Assembly (NCBI GenBank): GCA_964385285.1
Contig: CAYLOJ010000001.1
Location: forward strand, 88,537-152,536
Length of the DNA stretch: 64,000 bases
Source of the DNA: an uncultured Gammaproteobacteria bacterium
GTDB taxonomy: Bacteria; Patescibacteriota; Patescibacteriia; UBA9570
Direction: 5' to 3'
Position 1 is the stretch's first letter. Each line of letters opens with the position of its first letter. This document shows, one piece after another, positions 4,913-57,240 of the stretch. The notes beneath the pieces are model-generated. The model did not search any database. It was not told the origin of the DNA and was given only the letters and a program-made list of their open reading frames with translations. The position numbers were made by a program, and so were the translations under genes.

Positions 4913-4938
4913 ACGGGCCCCATTTGGGGTCCGTTTTT
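4913..4938 (+). terminator. Putative terminator hairpin
   Basis: ACGGGCCCC-attt-GGGGTCCGT is a 9-bp stem with one mismatch, followed by TTTTT. It sits between the sulfotransferase and the codA-like gene. Confidence 0.35.
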
Positions 4939-11951: not shown

Positions 11952-12017
11952 CTACTGTTGTCTGAAAAAATCTTCCCACTAGCAACACTCCTGTTCGCTA
12001 GCACGGAGGATCCTACT

Positions 12018-12185: not shown

Positions 12186-12297
12186 CGGATTCGTAGTCGG
12201 AAGGGCAGGGCGGTGGTCTCAACCCCACTGCCCGCCCACACCCATCCCGCCGTTCAAACGGTATTTTTTATTTACCTGGTTTTCGTGTATACTGGCA

Positions 12298-12303
12298 ATA
12301 ATT
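12298..12303 (+). promoter_or_regulatory. Possible -10 box (TATACT) upstream of argH
   Basis: TATACT lies 26 nt before the argH ATG. No clean -35 at 17-bp spacing, so this is weak. Confidence 0.2.
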
Positions 12304-12329
12304 TGAATTATTAAGTAAGTGCACTCTGT

Positions 12330-14612: not shown

Positions 14613-14614
14613 AT

Positions 14615-15418
14615 ATGAAACCCCGAGTTGCTGTACTAAAAAAAGTCACGAACGAAGCCAAGGATGTCAAAGGGTTTACCTTTGAGTTTGCGAACCTAAA
14701 CTCTCAGCCTGGTCAATTTGTCATGTTATGGATTCCAGGGGTGGATCAGAAACCGTTTTCCATCGCTGCCGATGATGGCAAGAGTTTTACGACCGTCGTC
14801 TTTAAACTGAAAAATTTTACCGAGCATCTCTTTAAGCTGAAACCAGGGGATAAGGTCGGTGTCACTGGACCATTTGGCAACCCCTACCATTGGAAACCCA
14901 AAAGCCATGTGATTGCGATCGGTGGTGGGTATGGGGCTGCGCCGTTAGCCTATCTCATTAATCGAGCCAAAGCCGATAACTGCAGTTATGAGCTATTGGT
15001 AGGAGCGCGCAATAAAGCCTTATTGCTTTATACAAATCATTTCCCGAAACATACTTATTTATCGACGAATGATGGATCGGCTGGGCACAAAGGGTTTATC
15101 ACAGAAGTGTTAGCTGAGCGTTTAGAACGACTGTCAAAAACCGAACGGAAAAATACGGTTGTCTACATGTGTGGTCCGGAGCCGATGGAATATGCTGCTG
15201 CTTTAGTCTGCAAACAATACGGGGTAGATAGTCAGATTAGTGTGGAGCGTTATATGAAATGTGGATTCGGGGTCTGCGGACAATGTTGCATCGACGATAC
15301 GGGTGAACGGATGTGCATCGAAGGACCCGTCTTAACTGGTAAGCACGCATTAACTCTTAAAGAATTCGGTCAGTATCATCGTGATAAATCTGGCCAAGCG
15401 CACACCTATGGTTCATAA
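14615..15418 (+). CDS. pyrK: Dihydroorotate dehydrogenase electron-transfer subunit
   Basis: FAD/NAD-binding fold followed by a C-terminal [2Fe-2S] Cys cluster (CGFGVCGQCC). Confidence 0.85.
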   Translation: MKPRVAVLKKVTNEAKDVKGFTFEFANLNSQPGQFVMLWIPGVDQKPFSIAADDGKSFTTVVFKLKNFTEHLFKLKPGDKVGVTGPFGNPYHWKPKSHVIAIGGGYGAAPLAYLINRAKADNCSYELLVGARNKALLLYTNHFPKHTYLSTNDGSAGHKGFITEVLAERLERLSKTERKNTVVYMCGPEPMEYAAALVCKQYGVDSQISVERYMKCGFGVCGQCCIDDTGERMCIEGPVLTGKHALTLKEFGQYHRDKSGQAHTYGS

Positions 15419-16013
15419 GGATCTTATCGACGCACTTTATCGTATTAACGCCGTCAAATTTGGTGAGTTCACTTTGAAGAACGGCATGCAATCGCCAATC
15501 TATATTGATTTGCGTGTAATCATCTCGTATCCAGATGTCTTGAAAATGATTGCCGGAGCCATGACGGAGCTGATTAAACATCACAAATTAGAATATAACG
15601 TTTTAGCTGGAATCCCATATACTGCATTGCCGATTACAACTGCGTTATCCTTGGAGCTAAACCAGCCAATGATCTACGCCCGCAAAGAAGCGAAAGCCTA
15701 TGGCACCAAAAAGAAGATCGAAGGCGCTTATACCGCCGGTCAAATCTGTTTGGTAGTGGATGATCTGATCACCACTGGTGAATCCAAGTTTGAAACGATC
15801 CAACCCTTTGAAGCTGAAGGGTTGATGATTCGTGATATCGTTGTACTGATTGATCGCGAACAAGGGGGCAGCAAAAAATTAGCCGATAACGGCTATCATC
15901 TCTATAGCGTGCTCACGCTAAATGATATCGTAAAACACTTAGTCAGCAACGGAACCATTCCGCCAGATTTAGAAAAAAAGATTCGAGATTTCTTAGCTGC
16001 TAATCATCTGTAA
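15408..16013 (+). CDS. pyrE: Orotate phosphoribosyltransferase
   Basis: PRPP-binding motif LVVDDLITTGESK. Start chosen at MVHKDLIDAL (KFGEFTLK follows). The ORF track starts at 15381. Confidence 0.85.
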   Translation: MVHKDLIDALYRINAVKFGEFTLKNGMQSPIYIDLRVIISYPDVLKMIAGAMTELIKHHKLEYNVLAGIPYTALPITTALSLELNQPMIYARKEAKAYGTKKKIEGAYTAGQICLVVDDLITTGESKFETIQPFEAEGLMIRDIVVLIDREQGGSKKLADNGYHLYSVLTLNDIVKHLVSNGTIPPDLEKKIRDFLAANHL

Positions 16014-16778
16014 TTGTGTATGACCTACGAAGCTAAATTACAAGCGGCAGTGAATCCAGCGGCGCGAGCGTTGCTCAAAACCGTTCTGGAAAAGGAATCC
16101 AATTTATCCGTGGCCGCAGACGTGACTACTTGTAATGAATTGATCACATTGATCCAGCAAACCGGGGATCAGATCGCTCTGCTCAAAACCCATATTGATG
16201 TATTGAGTGATTTCACTCCAGATTTAATCCCGACTTTGCTGGATCTAAAAAAACAATATAATTTTGTGATTTTTGAAGATCGGAAGTTTGCTGATATCGG
16301 CAACACGGTAAAACTGCAATACAGTGGTGGTGTCTATAAAATGGCTGACTGGGCAGATATTATTAATGCCCATGTGGTGCCAGGCCCAGGTATTATTGAA
16401 GGTTTATGGTCCATCGCTAAAGATAAAGGCGCTGGTTTGTTGCTCTTAGCGGAAATGAGTTCTGCTGGAAATTTGGCTAAAGGGGATTACACCAAAACCG
16501 CTGTACAGTGGGCTGAACAATACAGTGAATTTGTCATGGGTTTTATTGGCATGAAATCGCTCAGTAATAATCCACGTTTCATCACTATGACTCCAGGTGT
16601 GAACTTAGCTGATACCGGTGACGGCATGAAGCAGCAATACGTTACTCCTGAACAGGCAGTTCAAGGTGGTTCTGATATCATCATTGTCGGTCGCGGCATC
16701 TATGGTGCCAGTAACCCTGCTGAGGCCGCCAAACAGTACCGTGAAGCGGGTTGGAAAGCATACGCAACATTGCGATAA
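16014..16778 (+). CDS. pyrF: Orotidine-5'-phosphate decarboxylase
   Basis: FEDRKFADIGNTV, including the catalytic Lys, and the DxKxxD-type active site. Confidence 0.85.
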   Translation: MCMTYEAKLQAAVNPAARALLKTVLEKESNLSVAADVTTCNELITLIQQTGDQIALLKTHIDVLSDFTPDLIPTLLDLKKQYNFVIFEDRKFADIGNTVKLQYSGGVYKMADWADIINAHVVPGPGIIEGLWSIAKDKGAGLLLLAEMSSAGNLAKGDYTKTAVQWAEQYSEFVMGFIGMKSLSNNPRFITMTPGVNLADTGDGMKQQYVTPEQAVQGGSDIIIVGRGIYGASNPAEAAKQYREAGWKAYATLR

Positions 16779-16781
16779 ATC

Positions 16782-17558
16782 ATGCATAAGGAATACACAG
16801 ACCATATAGTCTTCGAAAAATTGTTGGTGTATTCAAATTATTATAAAAACTTGTCCGGTTTGATTCTAGGCTTTGCCTCTTTAGGTACTAGCAAGGTATA
16901 TAATATTGATACCTATACCTATTCTTCTATACAAGGTACTTTGGAATCAATACATGATATTTTAAAAAAAGGGCGGATCAATGATAGTTACGCTCTATTA
17001 AGAAAGTACTATGATTCGATCATTATTAATATCTATACTGTTTTATATCTTAAAGATCATGTGAGTGCTGAAGAGTTTATTGTCGAAAAAATTGATAATT
17101 GGCTTCAAGGAAGTGAAGCTTTACCAGAATATAGAGTAATGAATAATTACGTTCGTTCTTCAAATGATCTCAAGTCTCTTAATCATTTACTCTTTAAAGA
17201 CGATACGTATAAAAATATACGGGATCGTTGTAATAATCACGTACATTACAACTTTTTTCGCTACGTGCTTTTAAATGATAATGAAATAAACTTTGGCAAC
17301 AGAACTAAATCTTTAGATATTTTTTTAAAGGATTTAGATAATATATTTGTACTCCACTTTTGCTACTTATTTACAGTAAATCCACATTATATGGCATCTA
17401 CAGATTATGTGGATAGTCTAGATCTAGGCCTTATTGCTGATGAGAATTCACAATATTATGTAGCCCCATTTATACAAACAGCATTCAATGATATAAAAGT
17501 AAATCGACCCGACTTAGCAGAGGAAATAAAAAACAACTCTATAATGTACTTAGAATAA
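16782..17558 (+). CDS. AT-rich orphan hypothetical protein (possible HEPN-like Rx5H motif)
   Basis: 258-aa ORF with very low GC (roughly 28-30%) in a ~45% GC context. The product is rich in N/Y/K/I. It contains RDRCNNH (R-x5-H). No other recognisable motif. Confidence 0.45.
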   Translation: MHKEYTDHIVFEKLLVYSNYYKNLSGLILGFASLGTSKVYNIDTYTYSSIQGTLESIHDILKKGRINDSYALLRKYYDSIIINIYTVLYLKDHVSAEEFIVEKIDNWLQGSEALPEYRVMNNYVRSSNDLKSLNHLLFKDDTYKNIRDRCNNHVHYNFFRYVLLNDNEINFGNRTKSLDIFLKDLDNIFVLHFCYLFTVNPHYMASTDYVDSLDLGLIADENSQYYVAPFIQTAFNDIKVNRPDLAEEIKNNSIMYLE

Positions 17559-22233: not shown

Positions 22234-23298
22234 CTACTTTGAGATAATTAATTTAATTTGCTGAGGTAATTTTGGCGTACGCTCCATCCAGAACGGAACG
22301 AATCGCACCGAGACGCTGGACACTTGTTCAAAATCGGCCAGATACTCTTTCACCTGCTGTTCAGTTTTGCCGGTTAGATCAGCCACATCCACAAAATCTA
22401 GCGATTGTTCAACGGCGGTAGTCTCGGCTTCGCCAGAGATGATCCAATCTGTCCCATCGGTGGTGAGAGTGTAGGTGATCGCACCATCGGTGACAGGCTC
22501 ATCTGCTGCTTGCAACTGCGTGCGAATAGTTTCAGGATCAACCGGTAGGTAAGTGGCCACCCCTTTGGTCTGTACAGTAATGGCTTCAACCAAACTACCC
22601 ACTTGGCCTGCAACAGTTTGCTCGGTAATCTCCATTTGCCAATTGGCTGAATCAAAATCCGCAGTTTGGACTGTTTGGTTTACAGTGGCTTTTGCTGCCG
22701 TCTCTGCTTCGATTCGTGCCGCTTCTTCTGCTGCAGTAACGAGATCATCTGTTAAAGTCACTTTCTTAATCAACCCGCCAGTCATTGCCTCTGTACTTTC
22801 ACCATAGATCTTATCTTTTAAACTATCGGCTAACGCCACAATTTCGAATTTACTAGCGGCAATATTTCCCACAGCACCTGCTTGATCTGCATAGACAGGC
22901 ACATCAATTGTGCCGCCTGCAGGAACAGTTACCGTTTCATCCGTACGGAAGAGCACGCCCCCATCAGATAGTAAACGCGTAGTGCGGACTAATGGTTGAT
23001 CGCCACTATACGTATTCACCAGTGTTATTGTACCTCTGGCTACTGCATCTTCTGAACTATCCGCTGCATAATCTGTAAATGTATAGGTGGTATCAATCGA
23101 CACAACGACCGGTTCAACACCCAAGTCGGCTGCGCTGTACTGAAAATTAGTAGTCGCTGGAAGGTCATGTAAAGTAATGGCGATAGTAGTTTTACTGAAA
23201 GCCACATAAAGGACTGCGCCAACTAATACTACGACGATCGCGATGAAGGCGATTAAGAGGGGTGAAAAATAACGCTGTAGGCGCTGGGTTTGATTCAT
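22234..23298 (-). CDS. Membrane-anchored hypothetical protein
   Basis: Single N-terminal transmembrane helix (LLIAFIAIVVVLVGAVLYVAF), then an extracytoplasmic Thr/Ala/Val-rich domain. Tightly packed between dnaE and thrS. Confidence 0.4.
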   Translation of the reverse strand: MNQTQRLQRYFSPLLIAFIAIVVVLVGAVLYVAFSKTTIAITLHDLPATTNFQYSAADLGVEPVVVSIDTTYTFTDYAADSSEDAVARGTITLVNTYSGDQPLVRTTRLLSDGGVLFRTDETVTVPAGGTIDVPVYADQAGAVGNIAASKFEIVALADSLKDKIYGESTEAMTGGLIKKVTLTDDLVTAAEEAARIEAETAAKATVNQTVQTADFDSANWQMEITEQTVAGQVGSLVEAITVQTKGVATYLPVDPETIRTQLQAADEPVTDGAITYTLTTDGTDWIISGEAETTAVEQSLDFVDVADLTGKTEQQVKEYLADFEQVSSVSVRFVPFWMERTPKLPQQIKLIISK

Positions 23299-30238: not shown

Positions 30239-30934
30239 TTGTATTGTATGGTGCAGAATCAGAATCTTTCACTACAAGCTACAACCCGTAGCATTACCGG
30301 CAAGAAGGTCGCTTCGTTACGCAAAGAAGGGATCACTCCGGGCGTCGTTTATGGACACGGCATCAACACTACTAGTATTCAAATGAACCAGGCCGCATTA
30401 GACAAAATCTATGCGCAAGCTGGCCGCGGTAGTTTGATCGATTTGAGTATTGATGAAAAAGCAGCAGTGCCAGTGGTAATCGAATCTATCTCCTACAACC
30501 GTCTGACCGACGTCGTTGAACACGTGGATTTCCATGCCGTACGCATGGATCAAGAAATCACATCACAGGTAGCCTTAATCTTTACAGGTGAGTCTGCTGC
30601 TGTGAAATCACTTGGCGGAACCTTTGTAAAAAACAAAGATCACATTACTATAAAATGTTTACCTAGTAAGTTGATCAAAGAATTGACCATTGATATTAGT
30701 GTCTTGGCAACTTTTGAAGACAATATTAAAATCCGTAGTTTGAAATTGCCAGACGGTATTCAGATTATGGATCAAGCGGATGACATCATCGCGCTCGTAG
30801 CACAACCACGCAGTGATGCTGAACTTGCTGCCTTAAATGAATCCGTCAATGAAGATGTCACCAAAGTTCAGGGCGTCATCAAAGAAACTCCTGCTGCTGA
30901 AGAAAAGGAGAAAGACAAGGCCAAAAAAGCATAG
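30239..30934 (+). CDS. rplY: 50S ribosomal protein L25 / general stress protein Ctc
   Basis: LQATTRSITGKKVASLRKEGITPGVVYGHG is the L25 N-terminal domain. A C-terminal Ctc-type extension with an acidic/K-rich tail follows. Confidence 0.8.
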   Translation: MYCMVQNQNLSLQATTRSITGKKVASLRKEGITPGVVYGHGINTTSIQMNQAALDKIYAQAGRGSLIDLSIDEKAAVPVVIESISYNRLTDVVEHVDFHAVRMDQEITSQVALIFTGESAAVKSLGGTFVKNKDHITIKCLPSKLIKELTIDISVLATFEDNIKIRSLKLPDGIQIMDQADDIIALVAQPRSDAELAALNESVNEDVTKVQGVIKETPAAEEKEKDKAKKA

Positions 30935-30938
30935 TACT

Positions 30939-32066
30939 ATGGACCAGTCTTGGTCAGAAAAAGTGAAAGACGCTTGGTGGGCGGTACGAAGAAATCGTGC
31001 CGCTCGCATTGTAGCTGTTGTCATTGTTTCGTTAGTAGCTGTTTTGAGTATCTTATATGGCGTTTTAGCATATTACGGTCGCTTGCCCGGGAAGCAAAAC
31101 TCATCTGATACATTGACGGACACCTCTAACACCAATACGAATACAACCGTAGATCTCACCGGTACAACCACGCGTCAACTCGACGGTGCGACTGTCGATG
31201 CGGCCGTCAGTAATCGTTTTCCGGTGGCAGTGATGATTGAGAATCTAGTGGATATTCGACCACAAGCCGGTTTAAGCTCTGCAGGGGTTGTTTATGAAGC
31301 CTTAGCAGAAGGCGGCATTACCAGGTTTATGGCTGTCTATGCGACCACGGATTCCATAGAAAATATTGGGCCAGTACGCAGTGCTCGGCATTACTTTGTC
31401 GATTGGGCAGAGGAGTATCATGGAGTTTACGCCTATGTTGGTGGTAGCCCACAGGCGCTTGGTGTAACAGGTTCATCCAATTACATCACGGACTTAAATC
31501 AATTCTATAACTCAGAGTATTTCTATCGGTCGACAGATCGAGAGGCTCCACATAATTTGTTTTCTTCCTCCGAATTATTAGATTACGCATTACGAGACCT
31601 TGAATTAGATGCCAAAGCAGGGGATTACACACCCTATACCTTCAAGACTCCGGCTACTGAGGCTGAACGCCCCGGAGCAGTTGCACCAATCACCATCAAT
31701 TACTCAAACAGTGATTACCAAGTGGAATGGCGATACGATGAAGGCACCAATCAATATTTGCGTTGGAATGGCGGAGAGGAACATACGGATGCAAATACAG
31801 GCAAACAATTAGCCGCCAGTAACGTGCTGATTCAACGCGTCGATACGACAGTACTAGAAGCAGCTACTGGGCGTTTAGATATGGAAACGATTGGCAGTGG
31901 CGAGGCAGTATTATTTCAAGATGGAGCGGCAACCATAGGTAGTTGGAAAAAATCGGATCGTGGTGAGCGAACCTTATTTTACGATGCCACTGGTGTAGAA
32001 TTAACCTTTAACCCTGGGCCGACTTGGATTGAGGTTGTGCCAGTGGAAACAGCAGTTACCTACTAA
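30939..32066 (+). CDS. Membrane-anchored extracytoplasmic protein, paralog A (possibly DUF3048/YerB-like)
   Basis: N-terminal transmembrane anchor. Block FPVAVMIENLVDIRPQAGLSSAGVVYEALAEGGITRFMAVY. Start moved to MDQSW; the ORF track starts at 30837, overlapping rplY. Confidence 0.4.
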   Translation: MDQSWSEKVKDAWWAVRRNRAARIVAVVIVSLVAVLSILYGVLAYYGRLPGKQNSSDTLTDTSNTNTNTTVDLTGTTTRQLDGATVDAAVSNRFPVAVMIENLVDIRPQAGLSSAGVVYEALAEGGITRFMAVYATTDSIENIGPVRSARHYFVDWAEEYHGVYAYVGGSPQALGVTGSSNYITDLNQFYNSEYFYRSTDREAPHNLFSSSELLDYALRDLELDAKAGDYTPYTFKTPATEAERPGAVAPITINYSNSDYQVEWRYDEGTNQYLRWNGGEEHTDANTGKQLAASNVLIQRVDTTVLEAATGRLDMETIGSGEAVLFQDGAATIGSWKKSDRGERTLFYDATGVELTFNPGPTWIEVVPVETAVTY

Positions 32067-32073
32067 AACACAT

Positions 32074-33189
32074 ATGACACTCAATACAAAACTAGGAATT
32101 GTCGCAGGTAGTTTAAGTTTAGCGGCGGCAACGATTTGGGGAGGAATTCTGTGGGCCAGTACTCAGAACGACATTGCACTACAATCACCCAAAGTGATTG
32201 CACAAGTAACTCCAGTTGCGAATACGAATAGTGCTGTAGATCTCGTGACAGATTTAGTCGAACGACGCATCGATGGAACACTTGTTCAGTCTGATCAAGC
32301 GAATCTTTGGCCAATTGCAGTCATGATTGAAAATGCTGCCTTCGGTGGAGTGCGCCCGCAATCCGGACTGAGTTTTGCGCAAGTCGTATACGAATTGCCC
32401 GTAGAAGGGGGTATTACACGATTTTTAGCGGTGTTCGCAGGGGATATGCCAGAAAAAATTGGGCCAGTGCGTAGTGCCAGACCTACTTATCTTGAATTTA
32501 CCGGTGAATTAGACGCCCTCTATGCGCATGCAGGTGGTAGTCCTGAAGCTCTAGCAGCAGTAGATGGACTTGCAGTGCGCGATCTATCTGCTCTGGCAGC
32601 CGATTCTAAATATTTCTTTCGTGATAATACCTTAGTGGCTCCGCACAATCTCTTTACAACACAAGAACTCTTAACCACAGCGCGACGCGACAAGGGTTTG
32701 GCCGAACAATCACCAGCGTATGATCCTTGGCTATTTAAAGATGATGAACCCACGACTGAGACTGTGTCTACGGATCCATTGATCTTCGATTTTGGTTCTG
32801 GCCCCCTCTATCAGATCGTCTATACCTATAACCGCACAACCAATAGCTATGATCGTAAAGATGGTGGCGATGATCATCTCGATGCAGTGACCGGAAAAGT
32901 AATCTCTCCCAAGGTCGTTATTGCCCAGATGATTCCAGCAGGCACACCCACGGGAACTGAAGGACGTATTAATTATGACGTCACGGGTAGTGGATTAGCC
33001 TATATTGCTCAAGATGGTAAAGTGATTGAAGGAATTTGGTCCAAGACGGATCGACAAAGCAGAACCGTATTTCGTGATAGTGAAGGCAATCGAATTGAAT
33101 TTGATCGCGGCTCAATCTGGATTAGTTTAATTCCAGCAACAGGCTCCGTTACGTTGCCAACTGCATTGCCAAATACCACTACGAATTGA
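32074..33189 (+). CDS. Membrane-anchored extracytoplasmic protein, paralog B (possibly DUF3048/YerB-like)
   Basis: Same architecture as paralog A. Conserved block WPIAVMIENAAFGGVRPQSGLSFAQVVYELPVEGGITRFLAVF. Start set at MTLNTK. Confidence 0.4.
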   Translation: MTLNTKLGIVAGSLSLAAATIWGGILWASTQNDIALQSPKVIAQVTPVANTNSAVDLVTDLVERRIDGTLVQSDQANLWPIAVMIENAAFGGVRPQSGLSFAQVVYELPVEGGITRFLAVFAGDMPEKIGPVRSARPTYLEFTGELDALYAHAGGSPEALAAVDGLAVRDLSALAADSKYFFRDNTLVAPHNLFTTQELLTTARRDKGLAEQSPAYDPWLFKDDEPTTETVSTDPLIFDFGSGPLYQIVYTYNRTTNSYDRKDGGDDHLDAVTGKVISPKVVIAQMIPAGTPTGTEGRINYDVTGSGLAYIAQDGKVIEGIWSKTDRQSRTVFRDSEGNRIEFDRGSIWISLIPATGSVTLPTALPNTTTN

Positions 33190-40740: not shown

Positions 40741-42234
40741 TTAGTGGTTGCGATGCTTAGACTTCTGTGTAGTCTGGGCACCAGAATTAGTTGTCGAATT
40801 GGCCTGAGTTTTTTTGGTAGTCTTGGACTTCGTAATACGTAATGGTTTGCCGGTTTCATGTAGTTTAAGCTCAACTTTGCTGGCGGTAACTACATTCCCA
40901 AAGCCACCTAATCGGTCGAGTACTTCCCCCGAAACGACCGGACGTTTCTTACCCTCATCGATGACATAAATTGTATCGCGTTCTGGAATTTTTAGTAAAG
41001 TGCCATCTGCATACTTTACTGGATTACCTGCATCATAGTGATCTAACTCAGATGCGCTCTGACTATGAATCGCATAACCTTTGAATCGATTCTCTAAGAT
41101 ATTGCGCGACCAGATCGGATGCAGCCGTGCAGCATCATCCAAATACACCACTGCTCCGGTACTGCTATTTTGTAAGATCGCACCCAATGGATACTGGTCA
41201 GCTGCGGTGATCGGAGGATTGTCGGCAATCTGATCTAAATCTGCTTGGTTCATTGGCAAGACCTCCTCCGGATTATAACCTAACTGCCGGAAGACTTCAG
41301 CAGAAGTAATAGCTCGTTTTTTGTGATCACTGTCGATCAAATAGATTCCACCCGTTGGGGCCTGAACCAAAATAAACTTAGGAACAAGAATGGGATCGCC
41401 TTCATCATAGCGATCAATCACTGAACTATCGACGACTACAATTTGATTAGGGTTGTAATTCGCCAATAACGCGGCGTACGAAGTAATCGGTCGTAATTCT
41501 CCATTGTCCAATTTATACACGGCACCCGTGAGCGAGTCCTGCATTAATGTGAGGTTGGGGTACTTGAGAATTTCAGAGGCCCGATTAGGGAAAAATCGCT
41601 CCATCAGATCAAAGAAGAGGGAATTGCCGCCAACCGTAGCATCACCACCGTGATAACCTAGCCACGGTGTGTAGGTATATAAGACAGCCGTGGCTTTGTT
41701 TTGTGGAGTAATTGAGATGCCATCCAATGTTGTTTTGGTAATACCAACACCCCAACCAGAAACGGTGCTGTTGCGACTGGCAAGATCAGTGAGATAGGAA
41801 TCACGAATACGACTACCCGCAGCATCCAGTTGCTTTGCAAAGCCCTTGTATTGAATGACGCGCGGATCATCTTTGCTGCAACTATCGCAAACTCCGTAGC
41901 CTAACACCCAATCCAATAAACGACTATTGCTGCCAGTGACTAAACTGGATTCTTTTTGAATGGTCGACAAAATAAACTGCGGGTTTAGCTGATAGCGATT
42001 TGCCGTATTGTAGACAATCTCCGCTGCCGATCGTTGCACACCATCAACATCGGTCGTTGAATAGTCGGCCAAAATTCCGCCTTCGCGGTCTAGGAACGTC
42101 TGAATCCCACTCAAGGACATTCTCGAATAATCAGTCAAATCATCATCACTGATGATTTTATGAGGATTAAACGTGGCGGCTTGTCCAACGACTGGAAATA
42201 AAATTGCTAATGTTAGGGCTATTTTTTTGAACAT
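40741..42234 (-). CDS. Secreted hypothetical protein
   Basis: Signal peptide MFKKIALTLAILFPVVGQA. 497 aa with a Lys/Thr-rich basic C-terminal tail. Confidence 0.4.
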   Translation of the reverse strand: MFKKIALTLAILFPVVGQAATFNPHKIISDDDLTDYSRMSLSGIQTFLDREGGILADYSTTDVDGVQRSAAEIVYNTANRYQLNPQFILSTIQKESSLVTGSNSRLLDWVLGYGVCDSCSKDDPRVIQYKGFAKQLDAAGSRIRDSYLTDLASRNSTVSGWGVGITKTTLDGISITPQNKATAVLYTYTPWLGYHGGDATVGGNSLFFDLMERFFPNRASEILKYPNLTLMQDSLTGAVYKLDNGELRPITSYAALLANYNPNQIVVVDSSVIDRYDEGDPILVPKFILVQAPTGGIYLIDSDHKKRAITSAEVFRQLGYNPEEVLPMNQADLDQIADNPPITAADQYPLGAILQNSSTGAVVYLDDAARLHPIWSRNILENRFKGYAIHSQSASELDHYDAGNPVKYADGTLLKIPERDTIYVIDEGKKRPVVSGEVLDRLGGFGNVVTASKVELKLHETGKPLRITKSKTTKKTQANSTTNSGAQTTQKSKHRNH

Positions 42235-45627: not shown

Positions 45628-45693
45628 GACCCTGAAAGACTGTCGTTGAATGGCACCAAGTTACGGTGCAATTCACACTAGTCTTTCAGGGTC
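45628..45693. repeat. 14-bp perfect inverted repeat with 38-nt spacer at the island boundary (possible terminator for the minus-strand gene)
   Basis: GACCCTGAAAGACT (45628-45641) pairs with AGTCTTTCAGGGTC (45680-45693). On the minus strand it is followed by TTTCGCTTTATAT. Confidence 0.4.
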
Positions 45694-45711
45694 ATCGCAT
45701 TCATTGCAGCA

Positions 45712-47169
45712 TCACCACCAGCGGAGCGTGACGTACGGTCCGACTCGCCCCACCAGCTGGAAGCCGACGGGAGTCTGGAACGTTGCCTCCACCTCACCGG
45801 CTTTGGTGTACAGCGTCGTGGGCAGAGAGGCGCCGTTGGTGTAGCGCATCTCCAAAGCTCCGAAGACGCCGACGTTCCAGCCGTAGCGCTCGCCCGTGTG
45901 TTGACCAACACCAGCACGCAGGCCAGGACCATACCAAGGCATCATCTGCACCTGGGTGAATTGATTGTGGTTTGAGCCACAAAGCATATTCAGGTCCGAG
46001 CCCTCTTCACAGTTGAACACAGTCGGACCGAAGCCCGCCATGATCAGCGGATTGATCCGGTACTCCCACGACTTGCCGAGATCGTGGTGGAGCACCGGTC
46101 CGAAGCCCACGTAAACATCTGGCACGATGGTGCCTGCCGCCTTGTCCTCGTTGATCAAGGCCCCGGCGAGAGCTACGTAGATCTGCTGGCTGTACTGCAG
46201 CTGGAGGAGATCGAACTGGAGACCGGAGCTTGCCCAACCCAGCCGGTTGCCGTTGGCACTGATCGTGACGACCGGGATTGGCAAAGTCACCGCACCGAAC
46301 GGGTGCACCTGCAGCGCGGGAGCGGCGGAGGCAACAGGAGCCGTGGCAGTGAACAGCACGTTGTCCGGCAGTTTGGGCGCGTACGTGCCCTTGCCGTCGA
46401 ATCCCACCACTTCATAGAATTGGCAGCTTCCGCTGACCAACTCGTAGGTCGTTTTGGGAGTGCTGACTCCACGCTGATTGGGATCGCTCACGCTCTTGGT
46501 CACCGTCTTGTAGACGGCGACGAACCAGCGACCAGCCCCGTACAGGGTGTCACTGGTCGCCTTGCCCGAGATCCCGAGCGGGCTGACGGCAGCATCCAAT
46601 TTCTTGGGGCACTGCTTCGCCGTCGCTTCAGCGAGGTCGCGGATGCGAACGTACCCAGGCTGCACCTGTGGAATCTGGATATCCAAATCCAAGAAGTACA
46701 GCTTCTTGTCTGGCGCCCAGCTGATTACAGGCTTGTAAACCTGGTCAACCTGATGCTCGACGACCTGGCGGGGCTGGCAACTGTCGGGTTCGAGAACCCA
46801 GCTGTTACGATCCACCCGATGGTAGACCCCTACATAGTAGGTGTCACCGGGGGTGAGGACGTAGTCATCGCTGGAGTACCGGACGTCCGCGAGTGACCGC
46901 TTCCAGGGATGGAAGAGGTTGCCGTTGATGTCGACCGGGTCTGGAGCAGCCGGACAACTCCGGTTGATGTAGACCGCGACCAGGTAGTTCGCCGGAATGT
47001 AGTCCGCCTTGTTGATCCTCAAGTCGGGCTCCGAGAACCGGAGGTTGATCTCCTGGTTCGTTCGGTCGATAGCGGTCGCATCCTGGGCCCGAGCCACCGG
47101 CATGGTGACGAGAAGGGTAAGGAGGCAAGCCGCCAGCACGAGCAGGGAGCGGGTGAGAGAGAGCAGCAC
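45712..47169 (-). CDS. GC-rich secreted protein, possible outer-membrane beta-barrel
   Basis: GTG start preceded by GAGGTG. Signal peptide (LLVLAACLLTLLVTMPVARA). The C-terminal half is Gly/aromatic-rich with alternating hydrophobics and ends ...TLRWW. About 65% GC. Confidence 0.5.
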   Translation of the reverse strand: MLLSLTRSLLVLAACLLTLLVTMPVARAQDATAIDRTNQEINLRFSEPDLRINKADYIPANYLVAVYINRSCPAAPDPVDINGNLFHPWKRSLADVRYSSDDYVLTPGDTYYVGVYHRVDRNSWVLEPDSCQPRQVVEHQVDQVYKPVISWAPDKKLYFLDLDIQIPQVQPGYVRIRDLAEATAKQCPKKLDAAVSPLGISGKATSDTLYGAGRWFVAVYKTVTKSVSDPNQRGVSTPKTTYELVSGSCQFYEVVGFDGKGTYAPKLPDNVLFTATAPVASAAPALQVHPFGAVTLPIPVVTISANGNRLGWASSGLQFDLLQLQYSQQIYVALAGALINEDKAAGTIVPDVYVGFGPVLHHDLGKSWEYRINPLIMAGFGPTVFNCEEGSDLNMLCGSNHNQFTQVQMMPWYGPGLRAGVGQHTGERYGWNVGVFGALEMRYTNGASLPTTLYTKAGEVEATFQTPVGFQLVGRVGPYVTLRWW

Positions 47170-47374
47170 GAAGCACCTCGTTTCGCTTGGGTTATTGCTG
47201 ATGGAACACTTTCAATGAACGCAATGGACGAACTATTCGCCCAAACGAACTGATCATGAATGGAATCATGCTCAACTCATTTGGGTGGGCCGGCAGGGGA
47301 ATGCAGAACAAGTCATACACGCCCCCACCGACCGATTCCTCCTCAGGAACCCTTAGATACAGACACCCAGTCGG

Positions 47375-49417
47375 TTAGGGACGACGGCGGCGCAACGAGA
47401 GCAGCAGAATCGCGACCCAACTCCCGCTCGAGGCGAACCCCAAACGGTTGTTGCAGCCACAGCCAGTGCCGTAGAGAACAACACCCTTGCTGCTCCCCGT
47501 GTCATCCATTCCGGAATCCACGATTCCAGTGTCGTCGGTGTCACCCGAATCGCCAGAGTCACCGCTGTCGCCGGAATCTCCCGTGTCGGACTGATGGGCA
47601 TCACTCCCATCACAATCCTGGTCGATCCCGTCGTCCGGAACCTCTTCGGCACCGGGGTTGATGGTGGGGTCGGCGTCGTCACAGTCTCCTGCATACTCGC
47701 TGTAGCCGTCACCGTCAGAGTCGTCACACTCCGTGGAATCGTCTGCCACGCCCGAGCAATCCTGGTCCACACCGTCGCACGTTTCCGTAGCTCCGGGATG
47801 GATGGACGCATCCGTGTCGTTGCAGTCATCCGTGGTGTAGCTGTCGCCATCCACGTCATCCTCCAAGCAGTCGAGGATGCCGTTGCCGTCCACGTCATCT
47901 ACCCAATCTTCATCGGTGTAGCTGTCGCAGTCGTCGTCGATGCCGTTGCAGGCTTCGATGATCGCAGGGGACTGGGCCGAGTTTGCGTCGTTGCAGTCGC
48001 CCGCATCTTCGCTGTAGCCGTCGGAGTCGTCGTCGTAGCAGCTCGTGCCCTCGTCGATCGTGCCGTCACAGTCCTGGTCCACACCGTCGCACACTTCCGT
48101 AGCGCCGGGGAAGATGTCAGACCGCGTGTCGTCACAATCGGAGCTCAGGTCGTAGCCATCTGCGTCGATGTCGTCGTCGTCCGTGAGACCATCACAGTCC
48201 TGGTCCACACCGTCGTAGGCGATTTCGCTGGCGCCGGGGTTGGTACCGGCGGCGTTGTCGTCGCAGTCCGTGGTGTAGTCGTACCCGTCACCGTCCACGT
48301 CGGTCAGGTCGCTGCCGGAGCAGTCCTGGTCGATCCCGTCGTAGGCCGTTTCCGGCGCGCCCGGGTAGGTGGAAGGAGCACTATCATCACACTCCTCACA
48401 GCCCATGTAACCGTCACCGTCCACGTCGTCCTCGTCGCCGAGGCCGTCGCAGTTGGAGTCCACACCGTCGCAGCTCTCGCTGGCGCCGGGGAGGATGGTC
48501 GCATCGGTATCGTCACAGTCGCCCTCGTCCTCCTGGTAGCCGTCACCGTCGTCGTCGTAGGCGATCGTGCCCTCATCGATGATGCCGTCACAGTCGTTGT
48601 CCACCCCGTCGTAGTTCTCGTAGGCGCCGGGGTAGGCGTCCGCGTTGGCGTCGTTGCAGTCGTCACAGGCCAGGTAGGTGTCACCGTCGGCGTCGACCTC
48701 GTCGCCAAGGCCGTCGCAGTTGGAGTCCACACCGTCGCAGCTCTCGCTGGCGCCGGGGAGGATGGTCGCATCGGTATCGTCACAGTCGCCCTCGTCCTCC
48801 TGGTAGCCGTCACCGTCGTCGTCGTAGGCGATCGTGCCCTCATCGATGATGCCGTCACAGTCGTTGTCCACCCCGTCGTAGTTCTCGTAGGCGCCGGGGT
48901 AGGCGTCCGCGTTGGCGTCGTTGCAGTCGGTCCCACCCACGTCAGTGGAGTCGTAGCCGTCACCGTCGACATCGGTCAGGTCGCTGCCGGAGCAGTCCTG
49001 GTCGATCCCGTCGTAGGCGATCTCGACTTCGGCGAAACCATCGGCATGACCGTTGCAGTCATTGTCGATGCCGTCACCGCAGACCTCCGTCGCCGCAGGG
49101 TTAACCGCAGCATCGGTGTCGTTGCAATCGTCGGACCCGCTGTATCCATCACCGTCGTTCTCATCGGTGGTGCACAGCGCTGCAGGCTCCCAATCTTCAT
49201 CGTAGAGCCCGTCGCAGTCTTCGTCCTCGGCGTCACCACACTGCTCGGTGGCACCGGGGTAGATGGTGGGGTCGTAGTCGTTGCAGTCGACGGAGTCGTC
49301 GAAACCGTCGAGATCCACATCCGCCGCCATGGCGAAGTGGGGGAAGAGGGTGGCGATCATGACCAGCAGGGCGCAAAGCGCTCGACAGGTCGACTTCTGG
49401 TTGAGATTGAACCGCAT
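47375..49417 (-). CDS. Cys/Asp-rich secreted repeat protein with MopE-type metal-binding repeats and a MYXO-CTERM-like tail
   Basis: GGAGG Shine-Dalgarno motif 5 nt before the ATG. Signal peptide. About ten repeats of DGDGY..DCDDxDAxxxPGAxExCDGxDxDCDG. C-terminus is DSGDSGDSGDSG...GCGCNNRLGFASSGSWVAILLLSLRRRRP. About 68-70% GC. Confidence 0.6.
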   Translation of the reverse strand: MRFNLNQKSTCRALCALLVMIATLFPHFAMAADVDLDGFDDSVDCNDYDPTIYPGATEQCGDAEDEDCDGLYDEDWEPAALCTTDENDGDGYSGSDDCNDTDAAVNPAATEVCGDGIDNDCNGHADGFAEVEIAYDGIDQDCSGSDLTDVDGDGYDSTDVGGTDCNDANADAYPGAYENYDGVDNDCDGIIDEGTIAYDDDGDGYQEDEGDCDDTDATILPGASESCDGVDSNCDGLGDEVDADGDTYLACDDCNDANADAYPGAYENYDGVDNDCDGIIDEGTIAYDDDGDGYQEDEGDCDDTDATILPGASESCDGVDSNCDGLGDEDDVDGDGYMGCEECDDSAPSTYPGAPETAYDGIDQDCSGSDLTDVDGDGYDYTTDCDDNAAGTNPGASEIAYDGVDQDCDGLTDDDDIDADGYDLSSDCDDTRSDIFPGATEVCDGVDQDCDGTIDEGTSCYDDDSDGYSEDAGDCNDANSAQSPAIIEACNGIDDDCDSYTDEDWVDDVDGNGILDCLEDDVDGDSYTTDDCNDTDASIHPGATETCDGVDQDCSGVADDSTECDDSDGDGYSEYAGDCDDADPTINPGAEEVPDDGIDQDCDGSDAHQSDTGDSGDSGDSGDSGDTDDTGIVDSGMDDTGSSKGVVLYGTGCGCNNRLGFASSGSWVAILLLSLRRRRP
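48440..48930. repeat. Near-perfect tandem duplication (~267-bp period, ~221 bp identical per copy) inside the repeat-protein gene
   Basis: The string ggccgtcgcagttggagtccacaccgtcgcagctctcgctggcgccggggaggatggtcgc...gcgttggcgtcgttgcagt occurs at about 48442 and again at about 48708. It encodes the duplicated 89-aa block DCNDANADAY...CDGLGDE. Confidence 0.7.
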
Positions 49418-49677
49418 GAAACCTCCGCGGTGTTAGCGTGAACCGAATTCACTAGACGAATCGGATCTGTAGTTATCTGTATCTTTTTTTGGGAAAGAAC
49501 ATTCAAACACAGCCCGCACCAATGATCTAAACTAATCACTCGTGTGAACTGTATTTTTGCCGTTAGACGGCTCGGCACAATACTAGATTTTAACCAAAAA
49601 GTCAAGCCATCATTGAGCAGGACTATAGACCTGCGGATGGCACGTAATTACAAAGGGGATGGAATAGAAAGAATATA

Positions 49678-49709
49678 ATGCGTCGCACAATCATTCTTAT
49701 ACGACGCAT
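49678..49709. terminator. Inverted repeat / putative terminator downstream of ftsQ
   Basis: ATGCGTCG, a 16-nt loop, then CGACGCAT. A T-rich run follows on the minus strand. Confidence 0.3.
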
Positions 49710-53985: not shown

Positions 53986-55205
53986 CGCTTAGGTATAATC
54001 TCTGTCACGCCCATCATCATGGGTAGTAACACCTCTGGGATGCGAACCGTACCTTCTGCCGTCTGATAGTTTTCCATAATTGCGGCAATAATCCGACCAA
54101 TCGCTAAAGCCGTAGCGTCATTCATGTGGACAAACTCCAGACTACCATCTACTTTACGGACTTTTGTATTTAAACGACGAGCTTGGTAATCGCTCATGTA
54201 ATCGGCAGTGTGGGTTTCGCGATAAACGCCTTGGCCCGGCATCCAGGTATTGATATCCATTCCACGTGCATTCGGATCGCCAATATCACCGGTGCATTTT
54301 AATAGCAATTGATACGGCAGATTCAATTTTTGAAGCAATTCTTCTTCGATCGAAACCAACAACTGATGTTCGGCTAAGGCTTGTTCACCGGTACTGAAGA
54401 CTTCCATCTCTACTTTATGAAATTGGTGTAAGCGAATGATACCACGCGTATCTTTACCGGCGGCACCTGCTTCGCGCCGTAAGGCCGGTGAAAAAGCGAT
54501 ATAACGTTTTGGTAATTGCTCTTCGGGAATAATTTCATCCATATGGATCGGACCCAGCGTATGTTCAGCACTCCCGATTAAATAGAGATCATCTGCAGGC
54601 AAATAGTAGCGTTCGTCTGTGGGATGCAAGCGTGCCATCTTTTCAAAGACAGCTGGCTTAATAAAGATTGGTGGAATTATCGGGGTAAAACCTTTGCGCA
54701 CAGCCACACTTAAGGCCAAATTGACTAAGGCGTATTCCATCAAGGCCAGATCCCCTTTTAAATAAGTAAACCGAGCGCCGGAGACTTCAGCGGCTTTTTC
54801 ATTATCAATCACATCTAACGCCCTCCCTAATTCCCAATGAGGCTTTGGTTGAAAATCAAACTTGGGCTGTTTGCCCCACTCTTTCACAATTTGATTACCG
54901 GATTCATCTGGACCAACCGGGGTGTCGCTAGTGGGAATATTGGGAACAGTCCAAAGCAATACACGTAGCTGTTCTTCGACGTCCGTTAGTTCTTTTTGGA
55001 TCCCTTTGACTTTCACGGATAATTCTTTGGCACCATCCTTGCCTAACTTACGTTGCTCAGCGCGCAAGGTATCGTGCTCCCCTTGCAGATCTTTACGTTT
55101 TTGGTCTAGAGCTAATAACGCATCAATATCCGCAGTTGATTTTTTATTCGTCACCGCTTGTTTCACTAAGTCCGTGTGTTGGCGAATGAATTTAATATCG
55201 ATCAT
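53982..55205 (-). CDS. serS: Seryl-tRNA synthetase
   Basis: N-terminal coiled-coil arm (MIDIKFIRQH...) and class II motifs. Confidence 0.9.
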   Translation of the reverse strand: MIDIKFIRQHTDLVKQAVTNKKSTADIDALLALDQKRKDLQGEHDTLRAEQRKLGKDGAKELSVKVKGIQKELTDVEEQLRVLLWTVPNIPTSDTPVGPDESGNQIVKEWGKQPKFDFQPKPHWELGRALDVIDNEKAAEVSGARFTYLKGDLALMEYALVNLALSVAVRKGFTPIIPPIFIKPAVFEKMARLHPTDERYYLPADDLYLIGSAEHTLGPIHMDEIIPEEQLPKRYIAFSPALRREAGAAGKDTRGIIRLHQFHKVEMEVFSTGEQALAEHQLLVSIEEELLQKLNLPYQLLLKCTGDIGDPNARGMDINTWMPGQGVYRETHTADYMSDYQARRLNTKVRKVDGSLEFVHMNDATALAIGRIIAAIMENYQTAEGTVRIPEVLLPMMMGVTEIIPKR

Positions 55206-57240
55206 AGGCAGCTTGCATAGCTTCTAAACAAATCTTTAAACCATCTTCAATTGTCATGCCCACTAATTCTGGAGCGCGCTCAGTAATCGTGCGATCAATG
55301 GCTTTTGCGAAACTTTTATCTTTGAATTTTTTCACTAGGCTTTTTAACTCCAAATTCCGAACATCCTTATCTGGGCGAACAGCCGTTGCGGCCATCACCA
55401 AACCCGTAGACTGCTCAAAACAATACATCACTTTTGACATTAGAGATTGGGGTTCCAGTTTATGCATTTTGCCATTATGTTCTTTGACTGCAGCCACGAT
55501 TAATGGATGAATCCCTTTTTTCTCCAACCACTCCGCACCTACTAACGAATGTTGTTCAGGAGTGACTTGCGTATAATCAATGTCGTGTAACAAACCAGTG
55601 ATTCCCCAAGCCTCTGGATTGGCAGCCTGAAAATGTTCAGCAAATTTCTGCATGATTATTTCCGTAGCCAACATATGGCGGCGCAATTGCGGATCCAACA
55701 CCTCTTGCTGCATCCATTCTAGTGCTGCCGCACGCGTTATACCTGGTTCAAACTGGGTTAATGACTGATCAGATCCCGTGGCACCGGGAGCCTGCTTAGG
55801 ACGCAATAATGGAAACATGACGCACTCTCGAATCGGCTTATCCATCAAGAATGAGAATAAGCGTTCACTAACTCCAAACCCTGATGTGGGTGGCATGCCG
55901 TATTCTAAAGCCTCCACAAAATCTTGATCATGCATTTGGGCCTCTTCGTCCCCCGCTGCTCGCATATCTGCCTGATGCTCAAAGCGTTCGGCTTGGTCGA
56001 TCGGATCATTCAACTCAGTGTAGCCGTTACCTAATTCACTCCCAGCAATAATCACCTGATAGCGCTCCACTAATTCTGGATTACTTTCCATGCGTTTAGC
56101 CAAGGGTGACACGGCTACAGGATGATTAATCAAAAAGACCGGCCCGGCAATCGTTTTACGACATTGTTTCCAGAGCAGATCAGTTAAACGACCACGGCCA
56201 ACTTCAGCATCGATTTTTAAGCCCAGGCTCAGACATTTCGCTTTTAATTCTGCATCCGTTGCGGTTAACACATTGATTCCTAATTGATCGTTAACAGCGG
56301 TCACATAATCTAACTTAGGCCAGGGTTGAGCAAAGTCCACTGCAAACCCTTTAATGGTGAACTGCAAGGTACCAAACGTAGCCTGAATGACCTGTTTATA
56401 AAGTCGTTCCACCAATTCCATCGTATCTTGATAATTGGCAAAGGCCCAATAAAATTCCATTTGGGTATAGTCTTGCAAATGTTCCGGACTAATACCCTCA
56501 TTACGAAATTGTCGACCAATTTCAAATGTCTTTTCAAACCCGCCTACCATTAAGCGTTTCTGCCATAATTCTCCCATGGAAATACGTAAGAAGAGATCAA
56601 TATCTAGGGCATTGTGATGCGTAACAAATGGTTTGGCGTCTGCTCCACCCGGCGTTGATTCTAAAACAGGGGTTTCCACTTCAAGAAATCCTTCTGCCAT
56701 TAAAAATTGTCTGATGCTATTCCAGAAGGTTGCTTTCTTTAAAAACATCTCACGCAATTCCGGTGACAACAACATATCAACATAACGCCGCCGATAGCGC
56801 TGCTCCTCATCTTGCAAGCCAAACCATTCAGCTGGCAGAGGCTGTACGGCTTTGGTCAACATACTGATACGTTCTACTAAAATGGATTGCTCACCTTTAT
56901 GTGTGACGAAGGGCTTGCCAACGATCTCAACAATATCACTCACATCAAAATAACGCAGGTCAGCGTAGCTTGGCTGCTGCAACTCTTCTTTGGATAGCGC
57001 AATTTGCATGCGCCCAGTACTATCTTCCAAATGCGCAAACGTCAATTTACCATGCTCACGCCATTGGCGGAGTCGCCCGGCTAACGTAACAGTGGTGTTA
57101 GTCAATTCCTCAAAGTGACGCAACACAGCACCCACAGTGTGCGTGCGGTGACTAGCAGAAGGATAGATGGGTCCGATATTGGCGCGGTAAGCTTTGGCTT
57201 TCTCAATGCGTCCGGACCGTTCGTCGTGCGATTCGGCCAT
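55192..57240 (-). CDS. lysS: Lysyl-tRNA synthetase (class II) fused to a C-terminal HD-domain
   Basis: OB anticodon domain, class II motif 2 (FRNEGIS) and motif 3 (GFGVSERL) occupy roughly the first 490 aa. A ~190-aa extension follows with an H...HD signature (AEHF ... GLLHDIDY). Confidence 0.8.
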   Translation of the reverse strand: MAESHDERSGRIEKAKAYRANIGPIYPSASHRTHTVGAVLRHFEELTNTTVTLAGRLRQWREHGKLTFAHLEDSTGRMQIALSKEELQQPSYADLRYFDVSDIVEIVGKPFVTHKGEQSILVERISMLTKAVQPLPAEWFGLQDEEQRYRRRYVDMLLSPELREMFLKKATFWNSIRQFLMAEGFLEVETPVLESTPGGADAKPFVTHHNALDIDLFLRISMGELWQKRLMVGGFEKTFEIGRQFRNEGISPEHLQDYTQMEFYWAFANYQDTMELVERLYKQVIQATFGTLQFTIKGFAVDFAQPWPKLDYVTAVNDQLGINVLTATDAELKAKCLSLGLKIDAEVGRGRLTDLLWKQCRKTIAGPVFLINHPVAVSPLAKRMESNPELVERYQVIIAGSELGNGYTELNDPIDQAERFEHQADMRAAGDEEAQMHDQDFVEALEYGMPPTSGFGVSERLFSFLMDKPIRECVMFPLLRPKQAPGATGSDQSLTQFEPGITRAAALEWMQQEVLDPQLRRHMLATEIIMQKFAEHFQAANPEAWGITGLLHDIDYTQVTPEQHSLVGAEWLEKKGIHPLIVAAVKEHNGKMHKLEPQSLMSKVMYCFEQSTGLVMAATAVRPDKDVRNLELKSLVKKFKDKSFAKAIDRTITERAPELVGMTIEDGLKICLEAMQAAYDRY

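Follow-up and report, generated by a model that had tools for sequence, protein, structure and literature searches.

The window analysed here, a 64,000-nt stretch of contig CAYLOJ010000001.1 (positions 88,537 to 152,536 of the forward strand), carries on its minus strand a gene for a 680-aa protein that is composed largely of Asp- and Cys-rich modules of the MopE type. Our reading, to which we assign a probability of about 0.6, is that this gene encodes a variable, C-terminally anchored, Sec-exported surface stalk or adhesin of a Kerfeldbacteria-like bacterium of the candidate phyla radiation (CPR), and that it is a candidate host-attachment locus. The gene would be the upstream half of a two-gene cassette, putatively co-transcribed with a partner gene from which it is separated by a structured RNA, and the cassette occupies a slot between a gene for an M23 peptidase and an FtsQ-like gene in which counterparts recur in related assemblies. 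GltX, encoded beside the compositional island that the cassette forms, shares 74% identity with two metagenome-assembled genomes (MAGs) of Candidatus Kerfeldbacteria, and on this sequence comparison the host resembles a Kerfeldbacteria-like member of the CPR (Patescibacteria).

The MopE-repeat gene and its modules

The MopE-repeat gene and the features predicted in and around it are as follows (positions are those of the window).

47375..49417, minus strand: MopE-repeat surface protein gene, open reading frame (ORF) of 680 aa including the tail, with its stop codon at 47375-47377
49577..49605, minus strand: candidate sigma-70-like promoter (TTGACT-17-TATTGT), from a consensus scan alone, in the AT-rich, host-like leader 5' of the gene
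49325..49417, minus strand: putative Sec-type signal peptide, residues 1-31, MRFNLNQKSTCRALCALLVMIATLFPHFAMA / ADVD, with a basic n-region, a hydrophobic core, and an A-x-A site, recognized by eye
47588..49324, minus strand: 13 Asp/Cys-rich MopE-type modules, residues 32-610, from PF11617 and a regular expression
48390-48656 and 48657-48923, minus strand: two tandem copies of a unit of two modules (267 nt), with 11 differences between them and 96% identity, from a repeat search
47489..47587, minus strand: low-complexity (D-S/T-G)n spacer, approximately residues 611-643, from the sequence
47453..47470, minus strand: Cys signature GTGCGC, residues 650-655 (Cys653 and Cys655), from the sequence and the alignment of tails
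47393..47443, minus strand: hydrophobic segment LGFASSGSWVAILLLSL, residues 659-675, which corresponds in the alignment to the GW-hydrophobic segment of other tails
47381..47392, minus strand: RRRR, an Arg cluster (residues 676-679) ahead of Pro680 and the stop codon, from the sequence; RRR(R) is invariant in all tails of the lineage

A GGAGG Shine-Dalgarno sequence lies a few bases 5' of the ATG, and the GC content of the leader is 0.42. The cleavage site of the signal peptide (...PHFAMA/AD) was placed from the sequence without a predictor. PF11617 (Cu-binding_MopE, a 'putative metal-binding motif') matches 13 stretches of the protein with E = 1.8e-120 and 393.2 bits against a Pfam cut-off of 27, which bears out the assignment to this family made in an original prediction from the sequence alone; the repeats named there are thus present, and their number is 13 rather than about ten. 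The regular expression recovered 11 canonical and two degenerate units, the canonical form being D-x-DGDGY...DC[DN]D...PGA-x-E-x-CDG-x-D-x-DCDG, and five units have Tyr or Pro in place of the middle Cys. The protein contains 25.3% Asp, 12.6% Gly, and 6.2% Cys (42 Cys residues). The two tandem copies of the 267-nt unit are 96% identical and thus point to a recent intragenic expansion. An ORF of 615 aa on the opposite strand (47594..49441) was set aside as an artefact that arises because the GC-rich repeat DNA is free of stop codons.

An AlphaFold2 (AF2) model of residues 414-612, in which ions are not modelled, has a predicted local distance difference test score (pLDDT) of 86.8 and contains no regular secondary structure. 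Foldseek returned no match to this fragment with E <= 0.001. The best neighbours, all non-significant, are the thrombospondin type-3 Ca2+ repeats of the COMP signature domain (3FBY; E = 0.21, template modelling (TM) score 0.15) and, as a second kind, the thrombospondin type-3-like repeats of Capnocytophaga OmpA (5WTL). Such repeats are likewise Asp-rich, contain disulfides, and are devoid of regular secondary structure, but at E = 0.2-0.4 and TM scores of at most 0.24 the matches are a lead and not a demonstrated kinship. We infer that the modules may be stabilized by Ca2+ and pinned by disulfides.

Recurrence of the cassette in one slot

A MopE-repeat gene with a like tail layout, usually accompanied by the partner gene, was found in the slot between the M23 peptidase gene and the FtsQ-like gene in at least seven other assemblies, the related loci being drawn from independent NCBI MAG, JGI, and Logan/SRA assemblies. 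Both genes are present at the slot in five loci (L005, L087, L088, L090, and L091); L004 contains the MopE-repeat gene alone, and a partial high-GC ORF is found there in L006. The GC content at third codon positions (GC3) is 0.75-0.86 in the cassette and 0.28-0.49 in the flanks in all related loci, and the high-GC3 spans are as follows.

L004: 12700-13600
L005: 12900-17200
L087: 1-2130
L088: 1-2702
L090: 1-2779
L091: 1-1874

The slot is empty in L081, a 211-kb contig with identical synteny, in which 68 bp separate the M23 and FtsQ-like genes and no scar is seen. A terminator hairpin on the FtsQ side of the window locus (49678-49709) is partly common to this empty site.

Comparison with L088, the closest relative of the window, revealed that the GltX and M23 proteins are 88-89% identical, whereas the partner proteins share only 28% identity; in the C-terminal part of the MopE-repeat protein, the identity is 60% by BLASTP (372 positions) or 75% over the 299 best-aligned codons. 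The DNA similarity to L088 ends abruptly at the stop codon of the M23 gene. Contigs also tend to break here: five (L001, L002, L003, L082, and L083, from at least three independent assemblies) end approximately 45 bp or less from the M23 stop codon, and four (L087, L088, L090, and L091) start within the MopE-repeat gene. Such breaks are the behaviour expected of a repeat-rich, strain-variable locus, and because public assemblies break at the edge of the island or within the MopE-repeat gene, the cassette is probably under-represented in MAGs and protein catalogues.

Because the cassette is present in some genomes and absent from others, diverges faster than its flanks, and coincides with assembly breaks, it would represent a population-level hypervariable surface locus under diversifying selection, which could act, for example, on the attachment of an episymbiont to its host or on its escape from phages. 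O-antigen loci, flagellin-glycosylation loci, and 'metagenomic islands' are hypervariable surface loci with atypical composition, and the cassette resembles them in its fixed slot, its presence or absence, its divergent alleles, its atypical GC content, and the accompanying assembly breaks. It is unlike them in that its GC content is above that of the genome, in that it contains only two protein genes, and in that it includes a conserved intercistronic RNA.

The C-terminal tail

After the spacer, the MopE-repeat protein ends in KGVVLYGTGCGCNNRLGFASSGSWVAILLLSLRRRRP. The original prediction had described a DSG spacer followed by GCGC, a hydrophobic helix, and RRRR, and these elements are all found (GTGCGC, LGFASSGSWVAILLLSL, and RRRRP). 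The resulting tripartite layout, of the MYXO-CTERM type, lies at the very end of the protein. It can be aligned with that of seven related tails, the consensus of which is G-x-GC(G/A)C, 8-20 residues, (G)W with approximately 11 hydrophobic residues, and RRR. G-x-GCGC is kept in L087, L088, and L091, which also have similar DTG/DSG spacers, and G-C is kept in all seven tails of the lineage.

Three of the seven lineage tails, which belong to positional orthologues, score above the curated cut-offs of MYXO-CTERM-type models: that of L004 with TIGR03901 (24.5 bits; cut-off 20), that of L088 with TIGR03382 (25.8 bits; cut-off 15.85), and that of L091 (27.7 and 19.4 bits). The tails of L087 and P0067 remain below threshold, those of L005 and L090 give no match with these models, and none of the tails matches the CGP-CTERM model of NCBIfam. 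Neither the window protein nor its tail alone matches TIGR03901, TIGR03382 (GC_trans_RRR), or any PEP-CTERM model (TIGR02595-type), even at E <= 10, so that for this copy the MYXO-CTERM assignment fails by the criterion that the original prediction itself had set. In a leave-one-out analysis, a hidden Markov model (HMM) built from the related tails ranked the window tail first among 5001 sequences (itself and 5000 shuffles) and, among 384 C-termini of six-frame ORFs in the window, matched this tail alone (E = 1.6e-4; next best, 0.18). Together with the Pfam E-value of the repeats, this places the features of the protein well outside chance expectation. Because the positional orthologues pass the cut-offs and the tail fits the leave-one-out HMM, we count it as MYXO-CTERM type; by sequence orthology it is read as a divergent copy that would act like other members, the window copy itself falling short of formal membership. 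PEP-CTERM is excluded by the absence of a PEP motif. The earlier proposal of a PEP-CTERM/MYXO-CTERM-type signal therefore holds for the layout and, through the orthologues, for the MYXO-CTERM type, but not for PEP-CTERM or for the HMM score of the protein itself.

At least 31 of the best 120 MopE homologues carry tails composed of Cys, a transmembrane segment, and RRR; these homologues are mostly from Myxococcota, and some are labelled MYXO-CTERM. As judged from these sequences, the combination of PF11617 repeats with such a tail is an architecture that is already known and frequent. The MYXO-CTERM proteins of Myxococcota (TraA and 'MopE-related' proteins among them, sorted by MrtX, MrtC, and MrtP) have in common with the window protein a signal peptide, extracellular repeats, and a Gly-Cys/transmembrane/Arg tail. 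The window protein differs from them in that its host belongs to a CPR lineage described as monoderm, in that its tail lies below detection, in that only one substrate and no myxosortase are seen in 64 kb, and in that its gene lies inside a hypervariable, compositionally foreign two-gene cassette.

Proposed role of the MopE-repeat protein

In the model that we propose, removal of the signal peptide would leave the 13 disulfide-pinned, Asp-rich modules as an extended rod, probably stabilized by Ca2+, and the flexible (D-S/T-G)n spacer would join this rod to the GTGCGC / 17-residue hydrophobic / RRRRP tail. The Arg cluster would stop transfer and keep the C terminus in the cytoplasmic membrane. 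In a further step, modelled on MYXO-CTERM and CGP-CTERM, a Cys may receive a lipid, and an intramembrane protease of the CPBP type, with its gene elsewhere, may cut off the helix. The CGP-CTERM/MrtA system of Thermococcales archaea (Haft preprint) uses a Cys-containing tripartite signal in cells that have no outer membrane. For a cell with one membrane it is, in mechanism, the nearest parallel; its signature motif and lineage differ from those of the window protein. MYXO-CTERM signals are known to be cleaved, in a manner that depends on the Cys, by a myxosortase of the CPBP family, and lipidation is presumed (Haft preprint; PMC11980579); MrtX is an enzyme that cuts them in this way (PMC11980579); Patescibacteria are not mentioned in the main text of the Haft preprint.

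Several points weigh against this model. In NCBIfam, the whole protein has no match at E <= 1 and the tail alone has none at E <= 10. The window has 53 ORFs of 150 aa or more, and in the 52 that were scanned no CPBP protease, sortase, rhomboid, or exosortase was found, in agreement with the original prediction, which had noted that no sorting system was seen in the window; secretin or type II secretion system genes were not seen in the window either. There is a single tail of the MYXO-CTERM kind in the 64 kb, compared with dozens of substrates in Myxococcota (PMC11980579). MYXO-CTERM export has been described for diderms, via the type II secretion system (PMC11980579), and Patescibacteria are described as monoderm (PMC11665869). 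Ca2+ binding gains no support from the fold search, and the adhesin role is read from architecture and evolutionary behaviour only.

A rival reading of the tail is a plain stop-transfer anchor, i.e. a type I membrane protein without lipidation or proteolytic sorting, in which Gly-Cys has a structural role as a disulfide or hinge. Such an anchor would be in keeping with a tail that matches no sorting-signal model, with the failure to find a sorting protease in the ORFs searched, with the presence of only one such tail in 64 kb, and with a host described as monoderm. We nevertheless regard this alternative as rather unlikely, because the G-C motif, its spacing, and the RRR end are kept in seven tails even though the proteins are only approximately 40% identical, and three of these tails score above curated MYXO-CTERM-type cut-offs. 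A plain anchor would have no need of a conserved Gly-Cys signature, and a 17-residue segment rich in Gly and Ser would be weak as a permanent helix.

The partner protein

The second gene of the cassette, immediately downstream of the intercistronic RNA, is the following.

45712..47169, minus strand: partner gene (GC3 0.77) for a secreted product of 485 aa, in which a signal peptide precedes two beta-sandwich modules with two Cys each and a C-terminal predicted beta-barrel that ends in Trp; the modules and the barrel are those of an AF2 model

The partner protein has no match in Pfam or NCBIfam, and neither a Pfam search at E <= 1 with all eight family members nor a profile search of PDB sequences returned anything. 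An exhaustive HMMER search of 1.84 billion representatives identified seven relatives, and a word-index search returned only the partner itself; a ninth HMMER match (P0129) is a low-complexity repeat protein and was treated as spurious. All four relatives with readable context are located at the same M23/FtsQ-like slot. A 589-aa protein occupies the corresponding position in L005, but because its best BLASTP match to the partner is non-significant (E = 0.44), homology is not claimed. The family is characterized by a signal peptide, five invariant Cys residues (C72, C187, C249, C387, and C397), a nearly invariant Cys at position 131, and a Trp that is invariant at or beside the C terminus.

The AF2 model of the partner, based on eight sequences, comprises two beta-sandwich modules followed by long antiparallel strands at the C terminus (pLDDT 73; predicted TM score (pTM) 0.43). 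In the PDB, Foldseek matched it almost exclusively to small outer-membrane barrels, of which OpcA (E = 2.3e-4) is the only match with E <= 0.001, followed by NspA (TM score 0.62) and by OprF-N, TtoA, Ail, and OmpA (probabilities of 0.84-0.98). Like OpcA, NspA, OmpA-N, and Ail, the partner has a barrel of long antiparallel strands, here a predicted one, and an aromatic residue at or beside the C terminus; it differs from these barrels in that sequence-level support is absent, in that two 2-Cys sandwich modules precede the barrel, and in that the host is described as monoderm. Strand amphipathicity does not distinguish the barrel from the N-terminal sandwiches. On the model, the barrel is plausible but unproven, and, if true, it would be odd in a lineage described as monoderm.

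These features raise the possibility that the episymbiont deploys the products of the cassette where it touches a diderm host, on or in the outer membrane of that host, or that the CPR lineage itself possesses a layer resembling an outer membrane. The modelled barrel with its nearly uniform set of outer-membrane Foldseek matches, the invariant Trp, and a tail type otherwise described for diderms all point in this direction. The confidence values of the eight-sequence model, the single match at E <= 0.001, the lack of Pfam or PDB sequence support, the non-discriminating amphipathicity, and the fact that neither BamA nor secretion machinery was seen in the window point the other way, and we consider such a deployment distinctly improbable.

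The suggested copper binding

The original prediction had also suggested metal or copper binding as in MopE of Methylococcus. The family name of PF11617, Cu-binding_MopE, favours a role in copper acquisition, as does the PDB sequence search, in which the window protein matched MopE* (2VOV), the one relative with a solved structure. This match is, however, confined to residues 6-47 of MopE*, and the N-terminal 46 residues of MopE*, which bear the motif, are invisible in the crystal, being either disordered or cleaved (PMC3423442), so that the motif itself has no solved structure. The Cu(I) site of MopE* is formed by His132, His203, and kynurenine-130 in the globular domain (PMC3423442), a domain that is absent from the window protein, which contains only approximately four His and three Trp in its 680 residues. 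What the window protein has in common with the MopE/CorA copper proteins of methanotrophs is thus the PF11617 motif of approximately 40 residues, which MopE contains in a single copy, with its Cu site elsewhere, and which the window protein contains in 13 copies without the globular domain. A copper-acquiring function is, in our estimation, very improbable, and the copper part of the original prediction is not supported.

Base composition and evolutionary behaviour

The cassette coincides with a compositional island, the features of which are as follows.

45700..49420: compositional island, 58-67% GC compared with 38-49% in the flanks, with sharp bounds and inverted codon usage
45628..45693: inverted repeat (perfect 14-bp arms, 38-nt loop), from a repeat search, where the M23 and partner genes converge, exactly on the left boundary of the island; probably a bidirectional terminator

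GC3 is 0.80 in the MopE-repeat gene and 0.77 in the partner gene, compared with 0.26-0.50 in the 51 other ORFs of the window, the genes of which are housekeeping genes with 43-49% GC. For nearly every amino acid, the codon preference is the reverse of that in the other genes: GAC accounts for 78% in the island and 23% in the rest of the window, TAC for 97 and 35%, and TTA for 0 and 31%, respectively. No boundary repeats, target-site duplications, terminal inverted repeats, or genes for an integrase, transposase, or recombinase were found at the island, and there are no tRNA genes in the window. A transposon or integrative island was rejected on the grounds that boundary repeats and a recombinase are lacking and that the neighbours are housekeeping genes.

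Between the window and L088, the proportion of synonymous differences (pS) is 0.62-0.69 in the cassette, where 0.66-0.70 is expected at saturation, and 0.75-0.77 in the flanks, where 0.84-0.86 is expected, the expectation being obtained by redrawing codons from each gene's own usage. Synonymous change in the cassette is thus essentially at saturation, and on this ground a recent shared import was rejected; the GC3 of approximately 0.8 has persisted all the while. A search of 5.8 billion proteins yielded no donor with more than approximately 65% local identity. Three processes are candidates for the cause of the persistent GC3: gene conversion biased towards GC in a recombination hotspot, selection acting on the codons used, and recurrent import of alleles from an unsampled GC-rich pool.

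A one-off recent transfer from a high-GC diderm (e.g. Myxococcota), or an assembly chimera, with no meaning at the level of the lineage, would account for the GC3 contrast (0.77-0.80 versus 0.26-0.50), for the inversion of codon usage at almost every amino acid, and for the predominance of Myxococcota among the named MopE homologues, but it is scarcely credible, being contradicted by the recurrence of a like cassette (GC3 0.75-0.86) in the same slot of at least seven other independent assemblies, by synonymous sites that are essentially saturated in the cassette and near saturation in the flanks, by the failure to find a closer donor, by a partner family found only at this slot where context is readable, and by the absence of target-site duplications, terminal inverted repeats, and an integrase.

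The intercistronic RNA

The gap between the two genes of the cassette contains the following element.

47170..47374, minus strand: structured intercistronic RNA of 205 nt, with hairpins 1 and 2 at approximately 47288-47351 and hairpin 3 at approximately 47240-47285
Equivalent gaps: L088, 1115-1331; L087, 469-693; L091, 298-521; L090, 943-1174

This gap shares 95% nucleotide identity with that of L088 over 104 nt and 81% with that of L087 over 141 nt; no coding DNA in its surroundings is conserved to this degree, the flanking genes being 78% identical to those of L088 at the nucleotide level. It folds into three hairpins with a minimum free energy of -78.7 kcal/mol (z = -3.8), and none of 200 shuffles was as stable. 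In hairpin 3, compared among five genomes, 97.6% of cells are paired, and in 5 of the 17 pairs both bases have changed with pairing retained; none of 500 shuffles reached these values, and slid controls gave 25-52% pairing. The invariant G-U pairs are strand-specific, which suggests that the element acts as an RNA on the coding strand. We infer that it may set the relative expression or the stability of the two cistrons.

An Rfam scan of the intergenic region at E <= 1 identified no family, and a gathering-threshold scan of the whole window returned nothing. An integron attC-like hairpin was also considered and dropped, as RYYYAAC/GTTRRRY cores are absent and the G-U pairs exist on the coding strand only. 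A 14-codon ORF, MTCSAFPCRPTQMS, overlaps hairpin 2.

Other genes in the window

An apparently complete run of genes for de novo pyrimidine synthesis, amounting to more biosynthesis than is usually ascribed to CPR, is present near the start of the window.

4937-16778, plus strand: amidohydrolase, carA, carB, pyrB, pyrC-like, (a lyase), pyrD, pyrK-like, pyrE-like, pyrF

Directly after pyrF, a 258-aa ORF (16782-17558, plus strand) without a Pfam match has 30% GC and a GC3 of 0.26, and is thus a compositional outlier in the opposite direction to the island. A 354-aa protein with two predicted transmembrane segments (22234-23298, minus strand) matches Baseplate_J-like with 25.2 bits (cut-off 21.1); its gene lies between those for DnaE and threonyl-tRNA synthetase, with no other phage or contractile-system genes nearby. 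Two tandem DUF3048 paralogues (30837-33189, plus strand) each consist of the N- and C-terminal domains of this family preceded by an N-terminal transmembrane segment. A 497-aa protein with one transmembrane segment (40741-42234, minus strand) is encoded in all related loci (60-75% identity) and has no Pfam match; it shows a weak, sub-threshold likeness to EccB of the type VII secretion system (23.5 bits against a cut-off of 154). Finally, a 682-aa protein (55192-57240, minus strand) is a fusion of a class II aminoacyl-tRNA synthetase (Asp/Lys/Asn type) with a C-terminal HD domain; the length of the fusion is kept in L004 (62% identity over 673 aa), and the counterpart ORF in L081 is 479 aa long.

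Implications

As the architecture of the MopE-repeat protein is already known from other bacteria, what is new is its setting, i.e. a CPR host described as monoderm, a hypervariable cassette in a fixed slot, persistently foreign codons, a partner family with a predicted barrel that was found at this slot alone where context is readable, and a structured RNA. The original prediction had recognized neither the compositional island nor the partner gene, the CPR host, or the recurrence of the cassette. No paper containing both 'Patescibacteria' and 'MopE' was found in the literature searched. The locus extends Cys-type C-terminal sorting signals, so far described for Myxococcota and a few other lineages, into the CPR, and it raises the question of which processing enzyme, if any, would act in a single-membrane cell. 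A GC3 of approximately 0.8, held in genomes of 40-45% GC despite synonymous saturation, also provides a natural test case for the upkeep of local base composition.

A bolder and unlikely interpretation is that the slot cassette encodes diderm-style envelope proteins, one of MYXO-CTERM type and one a barrel, with foreign GC3 of approximately 0.8 held through saturation and an RNA of its own. If this were true, episymbionts supposed to have a single membrane would insert or present proteins at the outer membrane of diderm hosts, as a determinant of attachment or host range, or would have an unrecognized outer layer, and an active process, such as biased gene conversion in a hotspot or codon selection, would shield the locus from the mutational bias of the genome.

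Surface adhesins are among the few functions that were found to be essential in cultured CPR/Patescibacteria (PMC11665869). How CPR bacteria recognize and hold their hosts is largely unknown, and the MopE-repeat locus offers a candidate that can be tracked by sequence, the alleles of which could be correlated with hosts across metagenomes.

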